From assembly GCF_003334335.1 (NCBI RefSeq), contig NZ_QOWQ01000083.1: DNA of 3,513 nt, one strand, 5' to 3'. Shown in pieces: positions 1-3,513 of this stretch. This DNA is from Escherichia coli (GTDB taxonomy: Bacteria; Pseudomonadota; Gammaproteobacteria; Enterobacterales; Enterobacteriaceae). How positions within the stretch are numbered: position 1 is the stretch's first letter; every line of letters begins with the position of its first letter. Both the position numbers and the translations under genes were made by a program. Below the pieces are notes generated by a model, which saw nothing but the letters and a program-made list of their open reading frames with translations, made no database searches and had not been told where the DNA came from.

Positions 1-203
1 CTTGCTAAATCTTCCGTCGTGACATCAATGTGACCACGTAGTGACACGCCGTGACATGTCGTGACATTTCGTGACGCGCTCACCAGAAGGTGGATATACA
101 CTGCCATCACTGTTGCGATTGGCTGTCCTGATACCCTGGCAATCGTTCGCCACTTGGGGTCATTTGGCATGTCATGCCACAATCTGAGCCAGGCATTAGC
201 CAT
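1..203 (-). CDS. Partial CDS (5' end only, runs off the window edge): putative phage replication-initiator / replisome-organizer-like protein
   Basis: Hand translation of the - strand from ATG at 203..201 gives MANAWLRLWHDMPNDPKWRTIARVSGQPIATVMAVYIHLLVSASRNVTTCHGVSLRGHIDVTTEDLA... with no stop down to position 1. It is absent from the ORF track only because no stop lies in the window. AGAGGTG Shine-Dalgarno lies a few nt upstream of the ATG. The W-x-R-L...D-P-K...LL-x-A N-terminal pattern recalls phage replisome-organizer N-domains (from memory). It sits directly downstream of the cro/cII-like genes, where lambdoid phages place replication genes. Confidence 0.45.
   Translation of the reverse strand, partial: MANAWLRLWHDMPNDPKWRTIARVSGQPIATVMAVYIHLLVSASRNVTTCHGVSLRGHIDVTTEDLA
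19..76. repeat. Iteron-like array: six direct repeats of GTGAC(A/C/G) phased at 10-11 bp
   Basis: GTGACA at 19, GTGACC at 30, GTGACA at 41, 51 and 61, GTGACG at 71. Spacings are 11, 11, 10, 10, 10 bp, about one helical turn. The array lies inside the 5' coding part of the leftward partial ORF. Confidence 0.85.
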
Positions 204-271
204 ACTCACCTCTTCTGATACCGAACTTTACCCACGAACTTCCGGAAGAAATCCGGTATAAATATTGTTGG

Positions 272-697
272 TCAATGCACAACAACAGCATTACCAGGCT
301 GACCACCACTGTTAGTCAGGGTGCCCCAGGCGATCGCTACAGCGACAAAATCATCCACATCTTTCACCAGCCGATCCCGTCGTTCGACGATCTCCCGGTA
401 ATATTCAGAACTGTGACTGCGCATACGGGCCACCAGCAAAGGCGGCATCGCCTTTTCGATCGCCGGTAACAGAGCCTGCATTTTTTCAACAGCATCAGGG
501 GTGTCTTTATCCAGCCAACGGAAAATTTTCTGGGTATTACGGGCCAGGGCTTCCGGATGGCTGTCGTCATACAGTTCCGGGAACGTCATTCCCAGCTCGA
601 AATACGCTTTGGTAATTTTCGCAGCCGGTACTTTTTCGCCGTCCGGATGCGCCCAGACATTCATCGCCATGCGGATGTGTTCATGCTTGATTTTCAT
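272..697 (-). CDS. ydaT: YdaT-family protein (CII-like prophage regulator; historically annotated 'putative toxin YdaT')
   Basis: 141-aa ORF starting MKIKHEHI..., which matches my recollection of the YdaT N-terminus of Rac-like prophages. Its start overlaps the upstream cro-like gene by 17 bp (681..697), implying translational coupling, in the cro-then-cII order of lambdoid phages. Confidence 0.8.
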   Translation of the reverse strand: MKIKHEHIRMAMNVWAHPDGEKVPAAKITKAYFELGMTFPELYDDSHPEALARNTQKIFRWLDKDTPDAVEKMQALLPAIEKAMPPLLVARMRSHSSEYYREIVERRDRLVKDVDDFVAVAIAWGTLTNSGGQPGNAVVVH

Positions 698-953
698 GAA
701 TCAACTCCGGTGCATTTGATGTGTTAACCTTGAATCCAACAGGTAAACCATCGGTTGGGTTAGGATAAATATCAGGGCGAATTTCATGCGGGGTAACTTC
801 CCACTTCATTAGCTGACATAACGGAATTACCTGCTTTGGGGGAACGTCAAAGCTAAACCATTGCCAAACAGTCTGTTGAGCGACCCCCATATAACGACCT
901 ATTTCAGCTTGAGTGTATTTCTGCCTAATTTTTTCGCGAGTGCTATCTAGCAT
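681..953 (-). CDS. ydaS: Cro-like HTH DNA-binding protein (YdaS-like)
   Basis: 90-aa ORF with a helix-turn-helix signature (QAEIGRYMGVAQQTVWQW). GAGGAG Shine-Dalgarno lies upstream of ATG 953..951. It is divergent from the repressor gene at 1063 across a ~110-bp regulatory region and is followed by the overlapping ydaT-like gene. Confidence 0.7.
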   Translation of the reverse strand: MLDSTREKIRQKYTQAEIGRYMGVAQQTVWQWFSFDVPPKQVIPLCQLMKWEVTPHEIRPDIYPNPTDGLPVGFKVNTSNAPELIHENQA

Positions 954-987
954 TTTGCTCTCCTCTAAAAAACTATAAGCAAAGCCT

Positions 988-1025
988 ACAATAAAAAACT
1001 GTACACGATCAACAGTTTTTTATTG
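988..1025. promoter_or_regulatory. Operator-like inverted repeat in the divergent intergenic region (O site 1): CAATAAAAAACTGT-N9-ACAGTTTTTTTATTG
   Basis: Left half-site 988..1001 and right half-site 1011..1025 are reverse complements apart from one extra T, with a 9-bp spacer. The region 954..1062 must contain the promoters of the cro-like and repressor genes. Candidate -10 for the leftward promoter is TATAGT (reverse complement of 971..976). Candidate -10 TAAAAT at 1051..1056 would make the repressor mRNA nearly leaderless, as for lambda cI from PRM. Confidence 0.6.
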
Positions 1026-1062
1026 TGATGCTTTTAACAGTATTTACCTGTAAAATTGAATA

Positions 1063-1464
1063 ATGATGAACGCCCTAGAAGTATCTATGTACAGAATCAG
1101 CAAGCTTCTTCAGGAAACTGGATGGAGCCAGGCTGAGCTTGCCCGTAGAATTGGTGTGACACAACAAACTGTTCAACAATGGGTCAGCGGTAAGGCTACA
1201 CCTAAAGCCTCAAGTTTGGATAAACTGGTTGAGGTTACAGGGCATCCATTGCATTGGTTTTTATTGCCTCCTGAAGAGGGGGAGCAAATTTTCACCCCTG
1301 ACACGATGAAAATTGGTCCTCGTCAACGCGAACTGCTCCAGGCTTTTAGTGCGTTTCCAGAGGAAGACCAAGAAAAAATGCTTCAAGAAATCAAAGACAA
1401 GAAAAAATCAATGGAAGAAACCATTGCCCGGTGGTTGGCGGCACAAAAAAGCCGCCGGGCGTGA
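1063..1464 (+). CDS. paaR2: HTH-XRE family transcriptional repressor (CI-like); regulator of the three-component PaaR-PaaA-ParE toxin-antitoxin module
   Basis: 133-aa ORF with a classic XRE HTH (SQAELARRIGVTQQTVQQWVSG) in the N-terminal half and a Lys/Glu-rich helical tail. It is divergent from the cro-like gene and immediately upstream of the antitoxin-toxin pair. The paralog assignment (paaR2 versus paaR1) is from memory and unverified. Confidence 0.75.
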   Translation: MMNALEVSMYRISKLLQETGWSQAELARRIGVTQQTVQQWVSGKATPKASSLDKLVEVTGHPLHWFLLPPEEGEQIFTPDTMKIGPRQRELLQAFSAFPEEDQEKMLQEIKDKKKSMEETIARWLAAQKSRRA

Positions 1465-1491
1465 CCACAGTACAAGAAGAGGAGTTATGCC

Positions 1492-1683
1492 ATGAGTACA
1501 GCCCTTTCTCCGATAGTTTCAGAATTCGAAACTACCGAACAAGAAAACAGTTACAACGAATGGTTACGCGCTAAAGTGGCGTCAAGCCTTGCAGACCCTC
1601 GTCCCTCAATTCCACATGATGAGGTAATGGCTGAAATGGAGAATCTTATTGCTCAAATTGCTGTAACTAACAGGAGCGAGTAA
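1492..1683 (+). CDS. paaA2: Type II antitoxin of a ParE-family toxin (PaaA2-like, small and likely disordered)
   Basis: 63-aa ORF MSTALSPIVSEFETTEQENSYNEWLRAKVA..., acidic and low in hydrophobic core residues. AAGAGGAG Shine-Dalgarno lies 7 nt upstream of ATG 1492. Its TAA stop shares one base with the toxin start (TAATG at 1681..1685). Size and sequence match my recollection of PaaA2 from E. coli O157:H7. Confidence 0.75.
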   Translation: MSTALSPIVSEFETTEQENSYNEWLRAKVASSLADPRPSIPHDEVMAEMENLIAQIAVTNRSE

Positions 1684-1970
1684 TGTTACCCATTTTGTGG
1701 CTACCATCTGCTCGCGATGATTTCCGTCAGATCGTAGCCTATATTGCTAAGGAAAATATTCCTGCAGCACGCAGACTAAAAATACGGATTGAAACGTCTG
1801 TTTTAGCCCTCTCTGAGCATCCATATCTATATCCGCCAAGTGATCGAGTATCCGGTTTGCGGGAAATTGTGGTTCACCCTAATTATATCGTTTTGTACCG
1901 AGTAGCAGCTTCAAGCATTGAAATTGCAAATATTGTGCATGCCCGCCGACAATTTCCCTTCCCTATCTGA
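1683..1970 (+). CDS. parE2: ParE/RelE-superfamily toxin (ParE2-like)
   Basis: 95-aa ORF with the ParE-like pattern (N-terminal L-P-S-A-x-DF-x-Q-I-x-YI, central REIVV-x-P-x-YIVLYRV, C-terminal I-x-N-I-V-H-x-R-R). The start is coupled to the antitoxin stop, and CAGGAG Shine-Dalgarno lies 6 nt upstream. Confidence 0.8.
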   Translation: MLPILWLPSARDDFRQIVAYIAKENIPAARRLKIRIETSVLALSEHPYLYPPSDRVSGLREIVVHPNYIVLYRVAASSIEIANIVHARRQFPFPI

Positions 1971-1987
1971 ACTGAACAATTTTCACA

Positions 1988-2013
1988 CTCCCTCATTCGA
2001 GGGAGTTTTTTTT
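1988..2013 (+). terminator. Rho-independent terminator of the repressor-antitoxin-toxin operon
   Basis: Perfect 7-bp stem CTCCCTC (1988..1994) / GAGGGAG (1999..2005) with a 4-nt loop ATTC, followed by eight T (2006..2013), 18 bp after the toxin stop codon. Confidence 0.85.
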
Positions 2014-2023
2014 GCCCAACACA

Positions 2024-2067
2024 ACAATTAAAAACTGTTGACACAAAACAGTTTTTAATTGTAGATT
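2024..2067 (+). promoter_or_regulatory. Second copy of the operator inverted repeat (O site 2) overlapping a strong rightward promoter
   Basis: CAATTAAAAACTGT (2025..2038) and ACAGTTTTTAATTG (2048..2061) are perfect reverse complements with a 9-bp spacer, extendable to 15-bp arms at 2024..2062. Consensus -35 TTGACA (2038..2043) is built from the left half-site plus spacer, and -10 TAGATT (2062..2067) follows an 18-bp spacer. The half-site is the same as at 988..1025 apart from single-base differences. Confidence 0.65.
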
Positions 2068-2246
2068 ATTTCCACTACCCCACCCCGCCCCACAGAACGC
2101 CAGGCAATACTTCGAGTTACCCGGCAGTGGTCAGGGGTTAAGTAGCCAGCCCGAGGCGTATGAACATGACGGCGGGAACACTTTATATAACAGCGCAGCA
2201 GGTTTTTAGTTCCGCTACCCCGGCGTTAAGGGGAAATGAGGTCAGC

Positions 2247-2399
2247 ATGGATACTATCGAGCTTGGCAACAACGAATCTCTGGTATGTGGAGTATTCCCC
2301 AACCTGGACGGCACGTTTACCGCGATGACGTATACCAGAAGCAAAACGTTTAAAACGGAAGCTGGCGCGCGTCGCTGGTTAGCAAGAAACTCTGACTGA
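2247..2399 (+). CDS. Small prophage protein, YdfA/YdaF-like (DUF1391-type); start uncertain, ORF is open from 2160
   Basis: GAGG Shine-Dalgarno lies 5 nt upstream of ATG 2247, giving 50 aa (MDTIELGNNESLV...RRWLARNSD). This size class matches the ~51-aa YdfA/YdaF proteins that follow the repressor gene in Qin/Rac prophages (from memory). The upstream in-frame ATGs at 2160 and 2166 lie within a possible secondary promoter (TGAACA 2161..2166, TATATA 2185..2190). Confidence 0.55.
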   Translation: MDTIELGNNESLVCGVFPNLDGTFTAMTYTRSKTFKTEAGARRWLARNSD

Positions 2400-2497
2400 T
2401 GAAGGTTAGTAATTAAAGAGTTCTCCACAGGCGAAGTGGAATACGTTCGCCGGACACGGGTAAGCATTCGGCATGCTCTTTAACAATCTGGGTATTC

Positions 2498-2944
2498 CTA
2501 ACCACAAAGGAATCGCATCAATTTGGATTTTGCAGACAGTTTCTCTTGTTGTTCTACGGAGATTCCTATTTTGATCTGGGTTTTTAAGATTGCGATATCT
2601 TTAAGCGACGACCAAATATTATCATCTGTTTTTTCCAGGAGCTTTAACTGCATTTTCAATTCCGAATCGGAATATTTTTCTGCATCATCATAAAGCTGCA
2701 GATATTCTGCGGATTTTCTCATTGCGTTACCTGACTTTTGTCCGAATCCGTAAATCGTTTGAACGGTTGCTATCACAACAATGAGAACTCCAGAAACTTC
2801 AGGAATAAATCCACCAATGACAGATGAACCGAGGATAATACTCACCACTGAGAAAAGTTTATCGAGACGACCAGTCGCTACAGAGAATAGTTGTTCAAGA
2901 AAATAATCATATAAAACCCTGTCAAGAATATCATCCCGGTCCAT
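2498..2944 (-). CDS. Hypothetical small inner-membrane protein: N-terminal amphipathic segment, two predicted transmembrane helices, charged helical C-terminal tail
   Basis: 148-aa ORF with AGGTGA Shine-Dalgarno 6 nt upstream of ATG 2944..2942. Hydrophobic stretches LFSVVSIILGSSVIGGFI and GVLIVVIATVQTIYGF are separated by the short loop PEVS, then a Lys/Glu/Asp-rich tail follows. The gene is convergent with the YdfA-like ORF and visibly AT-richer than flanking genes. No homolog recognised from memory. Confidence 0.7.
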   Translation of the reverse strand: MDRDDILDRVLYDYFLEQLFSVATGRLDKLFSVVSIILGSSVIGGFIPEVSGVLIVVIATVQTIYGFGQKSGNAMRKSAEYLQLYDDAEKYSDSELKMQLKLLEKTDDNIWSSLKDIAILKTQIKIGISVEQQEKLSAKSKLMRFLCG

Positions 2945-3003
2945 ATATCATCACCTGCTTGTTTGATTGTTGCTGTTCCCCCTCTCCTCTGAAGGAGCTG
3001 GAG

Positions 3004-3192
3004 ATGGTTTTGGTCGAATGTTTTTCTCAGGTATATGTTTCCTGGTATTCGGAATGTCCGCCCTGTCCGCAGGCTTACCAGTACCTGAACAATTCTTTTG
3101 AACCACCATATAAAACACCTTCCTGTTGTTGGGGATATCCAGATTATACAGATTTCCTGTTATTGGGGAATGACGGAAACCACCTCGCCTGA
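3004..3192 (+). CDS. Hypothetical Cys-rich small protein (62 aa); may be non-coding
   Basis: Consensus AAGGAG Shine-Dalgarno (2992..2997) lies exactly 6 nt upstream of ATG 3004. Product MVLVECFSQVYVSWYSECPPCPQAYQYLNNSFEPPYKTPSCCWGYPDYTDFLLLGNDGNHLA has 6 Cys including C-P-P-C. An equally long low-complexity ORF overlaps it on the opposite strand, and no family is recognised. Confidence 0.25.
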   Translation: MVLVECFSQVYVSWYSECPPCPQAYQYLNNSFEPPYKTPSCCWGYPDYTDFLLLGNDGNHLA

Positions 3193-3407
3193 CGTGGTTA
3201 AAAGCAGGCACACAACACGAAAGCGCACGGCGAGATTCCTTTGCATATAAGGCTTGTCGTTAAATTTCTTCGACCGTGCACTTCCGGTTGTGGCAGTCCG
3301 CGAAATGGCGCGGCGGTAAGTATGGCTGGGGCTTCCTCCATTGCTCCAGAAAATGCACCGGGTCGTCAGGTTGACCATACGCTTAAGTGACAGCCCCGCC
3401 ACAATAC

Positions 3408-3465
3408 CCATGTGTAGTATTTGGTGGCATCAGTTCTACTCCGTGACTGCTCTGCCACCCTTTTT
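3408..3465 (+). ncRNA. dicF: DicF-like prophage small RNA (cell-division-inhibitor sRNA family), 3' end defined by its intrinsic terminator
   Basis: TTTGGTGGCATCAGTTCTACTCCGTGACTGCTCTGCCACCCTTTTT is near-identical to my recollection of E. coli DicF (..TTTGGCGGTATCAGTTTTACTCCGTGACTGCTCTGCCGCCCTTTTT). The terminal stem differs by one compensatory change per arm (GGTGG/CCACC versus GGCGG/CCGCC). The 5' end is approximate because DicF is processed from a longer transcript, and the 5' ~15 nt do not match my memory of DicF. Confidence 0.55.
3423..3465 (+). terminator. Rho-independent terminator (3' hairpin of the DicF-like RNA)
   Basis: GGTGGCA (3423..3429) pairs with TGCCACC (3453..3459), with internal CAG/CTG pairing, followed by C then TTTTT (3461..3465). 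Orientation is + only: on the - strand the T-run would precede the stem. Confidence 0.6.
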
Positions 3466-3513
3466 AAAGTGAATTTTGTGATGCGGTGAATGCGGCTATG
3501 CGCACGCGGAACA

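Follow-up and report, generated by a model that had tools for sequence, protein, structure and literature searches.

A SLATT-like membrane protein gene in an antisense cassette of Escherichia coli lambdoid prophages

In defence systems of the CBASS and reverse transcriptase (RT) types, SLATT proteins are predicted to be the pore-forming effectors, and in the known systems they are paired with an RT or a CD-NTase (10.64898/2026.04.29.721553; PMC9122126). The mechanism of their activation has yet to be resolved (10.64898/2026.04.29.721553). All SLATT systems studied so far depend on an enzyme that produces nucleotides or cDNA. Lambda RexB, a membrane protein expressed from the prophage near the repressor, is thought to collapse the membrane potential on infection; it has four transmembrane (TM) helices and needs the sensor RexA. 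In the annotation of P22, sieB lies within the early-left operon but on the other strand, and it has a promoter of its own. The locus analysed here shares features with each of these systems.

The window, i.e. the whole analysed stretch of 3,513 nucleotides from E. coli, comes from a lambdoid prophage of dicBF type and comprises its immunity and early-left region. The minus strand encodes YdaT and a Cro-like protein; the HTH repressor, relB and relE are encoded on the plus strand. The relB/relE-type toxin-antitoxin (TA) pair (1492-1970, plus strand) is situated between the repressor gene and the presumed early-left promoter. Two 39-nt palindromes at 988-1026 and 2024-2062, with arms of 15-16 bp and 79% mutual identity, bracket the repressor-relBE block and are probably OR- and OL-type operators. 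The second of them, operator-like with 16-bp arms, overlaps a promoter-like site, TTGACA-18-TAGATT (2038-2067), and the two together occupy 2024-2067 on the plus strand. We take this promoter-like site for the early-left promoter, which the cassette described below would oppose. Other prophages with the same cassette carry RacR-type immunity or a HigB-type TA module (L002, L056), so the region is mosaic. At the beginning of the window (19-76, plus strand), there are five GTGACR motifs, the last four exactly 10 bp apart within the 5´ end of a replication (DnaT-like/O-type) gene; this array looks like origin iterons.

The gene of interest occupies positions 2498-2944 on the minus strand, between a DUF1391/YdfA-like ORF of the early-left (dicBF-type) operon (2247-2399) and the DicF sRNA (3409-3460; Rfam RF00039, 62 bits, E 1.9e-12), which are its upstream and downstream neighbours and both lie on the plus strand. 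It starts with ATG, is preceded at a distance of 6 nt by the Shine-Dalgarno (SD) sequence AGGTGA and encodes a protein of 148 aa. Its GC content is 0.36-0.41, compared with 0.48-0.55 in the flanks. Between two groups of alleles, which share about 85% of DNA identity and 89-92% of protein identity, the pN/pS ratio is 0.11-0.16 (pS 0.30-0.34, pN 0.035-0.05), whereas the same comparison in the two shifted frames gives 0.78 and 4.7. Because of this low ratio in the true frame, we conclude that the ORF is a genuine gene under purifying selection and not a chance ORF. Intact homologues are present in 38 of 41 close loci, and the gene is found at the same site in 68 of 5426 complete E. coli genomes. 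RefSeq labels the protein, WP_000373333.1, only as "hypothetical protein". The initial annotation, made from the sequence alone, had described an unrecognised, AT-rich gene with a good ribosome-binding site (RBS), placed antisense between the YdfA-like ORF and DicF, and all of this stands. Its list of local elements was right about the antisense gene and overlooked a micro-ORF and a conserved upstream element, to which we return below.

Comparison with the Qin prophage of E. coli K-12 delimits the cassette. Window positions 2402-2471 and 3200-3513 match K-12 (NC_000913, blastn) on either side of a 32-bp junction, and the 728 bp at 2472-3199 are thus inserted between the 3´ flank of ydfC and the region upstream of dicF. 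Qin lacks the conserved element and represents the empty site. When the whole window is compared with E. coli, even the best matches extend over only 77% of it, the gap being the gene region. In strain AR_0017, the prophage of which is 95% identical over window positions 1-2407, the variable stretch corresponds to 2408-3199. The gene had been supposed to occupy the place of ydfB and ydfC. Both of them are indeed absent from the window; however, they coexist with the SLATT-like gene in strain 2013C-3033, which shows that the gene has been added to the region and does not stand in for them.

Hydropathy of the 148-aa protein peaks at 29-51 and 40-68 and delimits two hydrophobic segments, about 30-48 and 51-69, joined by a linker of 3-5 residues (PEVSG). 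Basic residues are located outside both TM segments (R26/K29 and K70/R76/K77), so according to the positive-inside rule the topology is N-in/C-in and both termini should be cytoplasmic. The hairpin is followed by a polar, helical tail of 79 aa. The AF2 model (pLDDT 93) places helices at 3-44 and 48-65 and agrees with hydropathy on the tight two-helix membrane hairpin and long tail proposed at the outset. With this model, Foldseek returned 94 matches from afdb50 at E<=1e-3, many of them named SLATT or DUF4231. The similarity to these named proteins extends over the full length (TMq 0.89-0.95 over about 148 columns) and relates predicted models on both sides, as no solved homologue exists. The top fold matches in BFVD are SLATT proteins of giant viruses, with weak E-values.

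At the level of sequence, the protein falls into PHROG family phrog_6315 (E 1.3e-23), which has no assigned function. When 1.84 billion representatives were searched exhaustively, 84 relatives emerged at E<=1e-3, mostly of 146-178 aa, and the typical size in the family is about 150-175 aa. The family shares the motifs YSYxLE, GR(I/L)DK before TM1, YQFG after TM2, a D(S/T)xxW segment and a C-terminal (A/C)G; residues R26, L84, D107, A118 and G148 are near-invariant. Among 19 family members scanned, 12 including the window protein matched a SLATT-named HMM at E 0.16 or better, with SLATT_4, _1, _6 and _fungal as recurring models. These NCBIfam matches mostly span the TM hairpin, where compositional bias is possible, and no family member scanned reached a curated SLATT cut-off (12-24 bits versus 35-100). 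For example, the window protein scores 15 bits on SLATT_4, the cut-off of which is 55, and the best family member, P0062, scores 24 bits.

Other searches with the family were negative. No Pfam family, SLATT/DUF4231 included, was matched at E<=0.001 by the window protein, by any of 45 family members or by P0111; PADLOC had no match for the window protein, and a sequence-profile search of the PDB returned noise only. P0111 carries its SLATT name from UniRef, yet has no Pfam match, and relatives of P0062 include no Pfam-annotated SLATT member with a precomputed domain. The SLATT names of some relatives may be inherited cluster names and would then not count as independent evidence. The resemblance to SLATT effectors suspected in the initial annotation is consequently upheld for the fold (TM about 0.9 over the full length) and not for any SLATT HMM at its cut-off. 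Taken together, we regard the protein as very probably a divergent, stand-alone member of the SLATT superfamily that lies outside every curated SLATT family. Two further candidates were rejected. Membership in the SieB family, raised as well, found no Pfam SieB match, and hhalign of the family alignment with P22 SieB, lambda SieB and P22 SieA gave a probability of 0.2. A holin or lysis-cassette reading was dismissed since the neighbours in the window and in its E. coli relatives are immunity and early-left genes and no lysis genes are adjacent.

Upstream of the SLATT-like gene, and on the same strand, lies a proline-rich micro-ORF of 52 codons (2951-3109, minus strand; MVVQKNCSGTGKPADRADIPNTRKHIPEKNIRPKPSPAPSEERGNSNNQTSR) with its own SD, GGAAGGTG, 6 nt before its ATG. 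Its TGA stop falls inside the SD of the SLATT-like gene, from which we deduce that the two ORFs are translationally coupled. The proline-rich stretch reads …HIPEKNIRPKPSPAPS…. Analogous ORFs precede homologues in seven loci (L004, L005, L045, L048, L057, L061 and L064); they comprise 21-48 codons and end 4-16 nt before the main ATG, although the main proteins behind them share only about 30-45% identity with the window protein. Their proline-rich parts are …NPKPIRPTPPPPSTPS… in Providencia phage PSTNGR2lys, …TPTPPPPTNTS… in phage EKP1, …RPAPKPEPKPK… in L045 (1583-1684), …RPVPPPKPQRKS in L048, …HHVPIRRAPPPPPPSKP in a P2-like prophage of Vreelandella, …GHIPPKPTPPPKK in L061 and …HVPVNQRPAPIPEPKPEM in an e14-type E. 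coli prophage (L064); coordinates of three of the ORFs are 4875-4991 (L004), 4847-4993 (L005) and 5863-5985 (L057). A proline-rich micro-ORF is thus kept from E. coli to a genome of Vreelandella (Halomonadaceae). The micro-ORFs tested matched no family in PHROG or PADLOC, and an upstream ORF of this kind is missing altogether in L044, L051 and L058. We also considered a leader acting by polyproline (EF-P-dependent) stalling. This was downgraded because the window version, RPKPSPAPS, has no consecutive prolines, unlike several homologous micro-ORFs that contain PPPP or longer runs.

Variation among E. coli alleles bears on the relation of the two ORFs. The N-terminal half of the micro-ORF is replaced between alleles and the C-terminal half is identical in protein, its coding sequence (the 3´ half) showing 3 synonymous and 0 non-synonymous changes. 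In 8 of the 41 close loci (L029-L031, L037-L040 and L043, from IMG/VR), two CAAGCAGGTG repeats mark a deletion, located about 35 nt ahead of the SLATT ORF, which has removed most of the micro-ORF. Five of these eight retain an intact SLATT ORF of 148 aa, and in the other three it is truncated or frameshifted (68 or 119 aa). No disrupted SLATT ORF was found in the 32 loci that keep the micro-ORF. The association, which goes back to about two independent events, suggests that the micro-ORF and the SLATT-like gene are functionally linked. The five intact ORFs at the same time demonstrate that a prophage can carry the SLATT-like gene without the peptide.

The micro-ORF is preceded by a conserved element of about 90 nt (3126-3215, minus strand), a putative promoter/leader. 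An alignment of 9 loci with 3 unrelated types of cargo reveals long invariant blocks, and at every locus examined the element ends at the RBS of an opposite-strand gene, whereas the genes themselves differ. Of 5426 E. coli genomes, about 1250 contain the element, whereas only 85 contain the whole small-ORF region. A repeat search identified a direct repeat of the CCCCAAYAACAGGAA type (2 matches versus 0.08 expected), with copy 1, CCCCAATAACAGGAA, at 3154-3168 and copy 2, CCCCAACAACAGGAA, at 3120-3134, both on the minus strand; the latter abuts the SD of the micro-ORF. Between the copies, a TATAAT hexamer (3143-3148, minus strand) can be read as a candidate -10 box, at the position of which other alleles have GTTAAT or TATAAT. 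A consensus promoter scan did not report this site, and a good -35 box was not found. In L019 the candidate -10 region carries a 9-bp tandem duplication, TGTATAATC (about 3040-3060). The repeats contain ACAGGA/AGGA motifs, one of which overlaps the SD of the micro-ORF, and they are possible CsrA sites by their motif content. Similar paired repeats of CCACAAC type were noticed upstream of the homologues in L004 and L057. A structured RNA was considered for the element and rejected: as RNA it is less structured than shuffled sequences (z = +2.0; it folds worse than 199 of 200), and Rfam has no match at it.

What follows the element is variable. Besides the SLATT-like module (the window type and the e14-type allele WP_000196297), it precedes a 171-aa coiled-coil/Zn-ribbon protein gene of phrog_1244 (L054, L063, L065 and L066; in O157, O103 and other strains) and a gene of the ECs1072 family, phrog_5286 (L055). 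In E. coli AR_0017 an alternative antisense gene of 64 aa, phrog_4987 of unknown function (L001, 5738-5932, minus strand), occurs without the element. PADLOC had no match for the alternative cargo genes, and none of the cargo genes is a known defence gene. In our interpretation, the element is a putative promoter/leader from which an antisense cassette with exchangeable cargo would be transcribed. The site looks like a cargo hotspot in lambdoid prophages of dicBF and e14/yfdP types.

Homologues of the SLATT-like gene were inspected in 12 different genomic settings. Almost without exception the gene belongs to a temperate phage and stands alone, or accompanied only by the micro-ORF, while its neighbours are encoded on the other strand. 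Lambdoid early-left regions next to repressors are represented by the window, L002, L004, L045, L048 and L064. In phage EKP1 the gene lies between the antiterminator gene and the lysis genes, in a P22-like element (L044) it is flanked by ejection/SLT genes and by arc/ant, at the place of sieA in P22, and in Mu-like Salmonella prophages it lies between terminase and DUF1804/lysis genes. In a P2-like prophage it comes immediately after gene A and a traR-like gene; P2 itself carries tin and old near gene A. One homologue, P0047 (4001-4486 of metagenome scaffold L051), is located outside phages. It shares 23 nt with the 3´ end of a gene for a Type ISP restriction-modification protein (1669 aa) and is followed by genes for a 606-aa protein and an SMC_N/AAA_23 protein, a setting that is possibly a defence island. 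In none of the 12 contexts, the window included, did we find a CD-NTase/SMODS, SLOG or reverse transcriptase partner. As a side remark, EKP1 (L005; OM284015) is recorded as an Elizabethkingia phage, and its genes are of enterobacterial lambdoid type (Rz, class II holin, DUF4222, antiterminator and a 31%-identical SLATT-like module), so that this host assignment may be questionable.

Because of this genomic context, we propose that the SLATT-like gene might encode an abortive infection or exclusion effector which is expressed in the lysogen and acts by membrane permeabilisation, a reading to which we would give about an even chance. The locus would constitute a self-contained "moron" cassette composed of the promoter/leader element, the micro-ORF and the gene for a SLATT-like inner-membrane protein. 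Being transcribed against the repressed early-left operon, the cassette would be expressed in the lysogen. Its product would be an inner-membrane protein whose two termini face the cytoplasm, and it would be held closed by its cytoplasmic helical bundle, probably with the help of the proline-rich peptide. A cue from infection might then release the protein, which would oligomerise and permeabilise or depolarise the membrane. The damage would abort the superinfecting phage, i.e. the outcome would be similar to that of sieB or rexB and the effector would be similar to SLATT. The role of the proline-rich peptide in this process would be to gate or assist the SLATT-like protein. More tentatively, and with more doubt than belief, we suggest that the micro-protein and the SLATT-like protein might form a minimal, enzyme-free sensor-effector Abi system, accompanied by a cargo-exchange hotspot marked by the element. 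If this were the case, the cargo genes of phrog_1244, the ECs1072 family and phrog_4987 would be new defence genes, too.

Other roles can be imagined for a small inner-membrane protein of a prophage. It might block DNA entry at the inner membrane without killing the cell, as a superinfection-exclusion protein like P22 SieA, T4 Imm or HK97 gp15, and the homologue of L044 indeed resides at the position equivalent to that of P22 sieA. We nevertheless consider such entry blocking unlikely: there is no homology to SieA (hhalign probability 0.2), the fold matches SLATT-type effectors, and only about 3-5 residues would be periplasmic, whereas about 110 of 148 would be cytoplasmic and thus better suited to sensing in the cytoplasm than to touching the ejection apparatus of an arriving phage. 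The tight coupling of a small upstream ORF to the membrane protein gene is also reminiscent of an addiction module, in which the membrane protein would be the toxin, the proline-rich peptide the antitoxin, and the pair would stabilise the prophage. All three disrupted SLATT ORFs come from loci without the micro-ORF, and a relBE module is already present in the window. However, the five loci with an intact 148-aa ORF and no peptide, as well as the homologues of L044, L051 and L058, which have no small ORF, make this explanation quite improbable. TA and abortive infection roles are in any case compatible and not mutually exclusive.

The position of the cassette between the putative early-left promoter (2038-2067) and dicF/dicB brings to mind a role in cis, where convergent transcription would dampen early-left read-through into the toxic dicF-dicB; alternatively, the protein might modulate host physiology or the lysis-lysogeny decision of the phage. 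Since the cargo genes behind the element are unrelated, selection may act on the promoter itself. Yet strong purifying selection acts on the coding sequence, and relatives of the gene are found in prophages of P2-, Mu- and P22-like type and beside a restriction enzyme, all of them without dicBF. With respect to lysis, no lysis genes are adjacent in the window or in E. coli relatives. We would be surprised if this last explanation were correct.

The SLATT superfamily as such is already known. No description was found in the literature searched for three components of the present locus, namely the putative SLATT-like clade to which the window protein belongs, the pairing of a SLATT-like gene with a proline-rich micro-ORF in place of a sensor enzyme, and the cargo site marked by a conserved element in lambdoid prophages. 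Searches for WP_000373333, WP_021565033, phrog_6315, WP_000559928 and WP_000016389 found no literature, and ECs1072 has one mention, in an unrelated transcriptome paper. If the SLATT-like protein needs no partner, or only a peptide of about 21-52 aa, no simpler tractable model could be had for studying how SLATT proteins are gated. The shared element, which precedes at least three unrelated uncharacterised genes, offers a cheap handle for mining prophage cargo. Should these cargo genes be defence genes, the site would be a lambdoid counterpart of the P2/P4 hotspots, and the prediction of host range for phage therapy in E. coli, including O157 and O103 strains, would be affected.

Among known systems, the P2/P4 defence hotspots (PMC9122126) are comparable in having conserved flanks, interchangeable cargo and a fixed position in the prophage. 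The site described here differs from them in that it lies in lambdoid prophages of dicBF and e14/yfdP types, is defined by an element of about 90 nt and harbors no cargo gene known as a defence gene. With SieB of lambda and P22, the window protein has in common that it is a small inner-membrane protein encoded antisense in the early-left operon under its own promoter, which in the window is inferred. SieB had been named initially as a precedent in kind and not as a homologue, and the same antisense early-left geometry of P22 sieB bears this out; homology between the two proteins is not detectable, and their size and architecture are unlike. Lambda RexB is likewise a prophage-encoded membrane protein near the repressor, and its four TM helices set it apart. 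The closest parallel is with the SLATT effectors of type I CBASS, DRT10/UG17 and DRT3. The window family differs from them in scoring below every curated SLATT HMM cut-off and in its partner, which is not a nucleotide-synthesising sensor enzyme but, where present, a proline-rich peptide of 21-52 aa. It shares with them the two-TM hairpin with cytoplasmic helices on both sides, the location on a mobile element and a full-length fold that matches proteins named SLATT or DUF4231.
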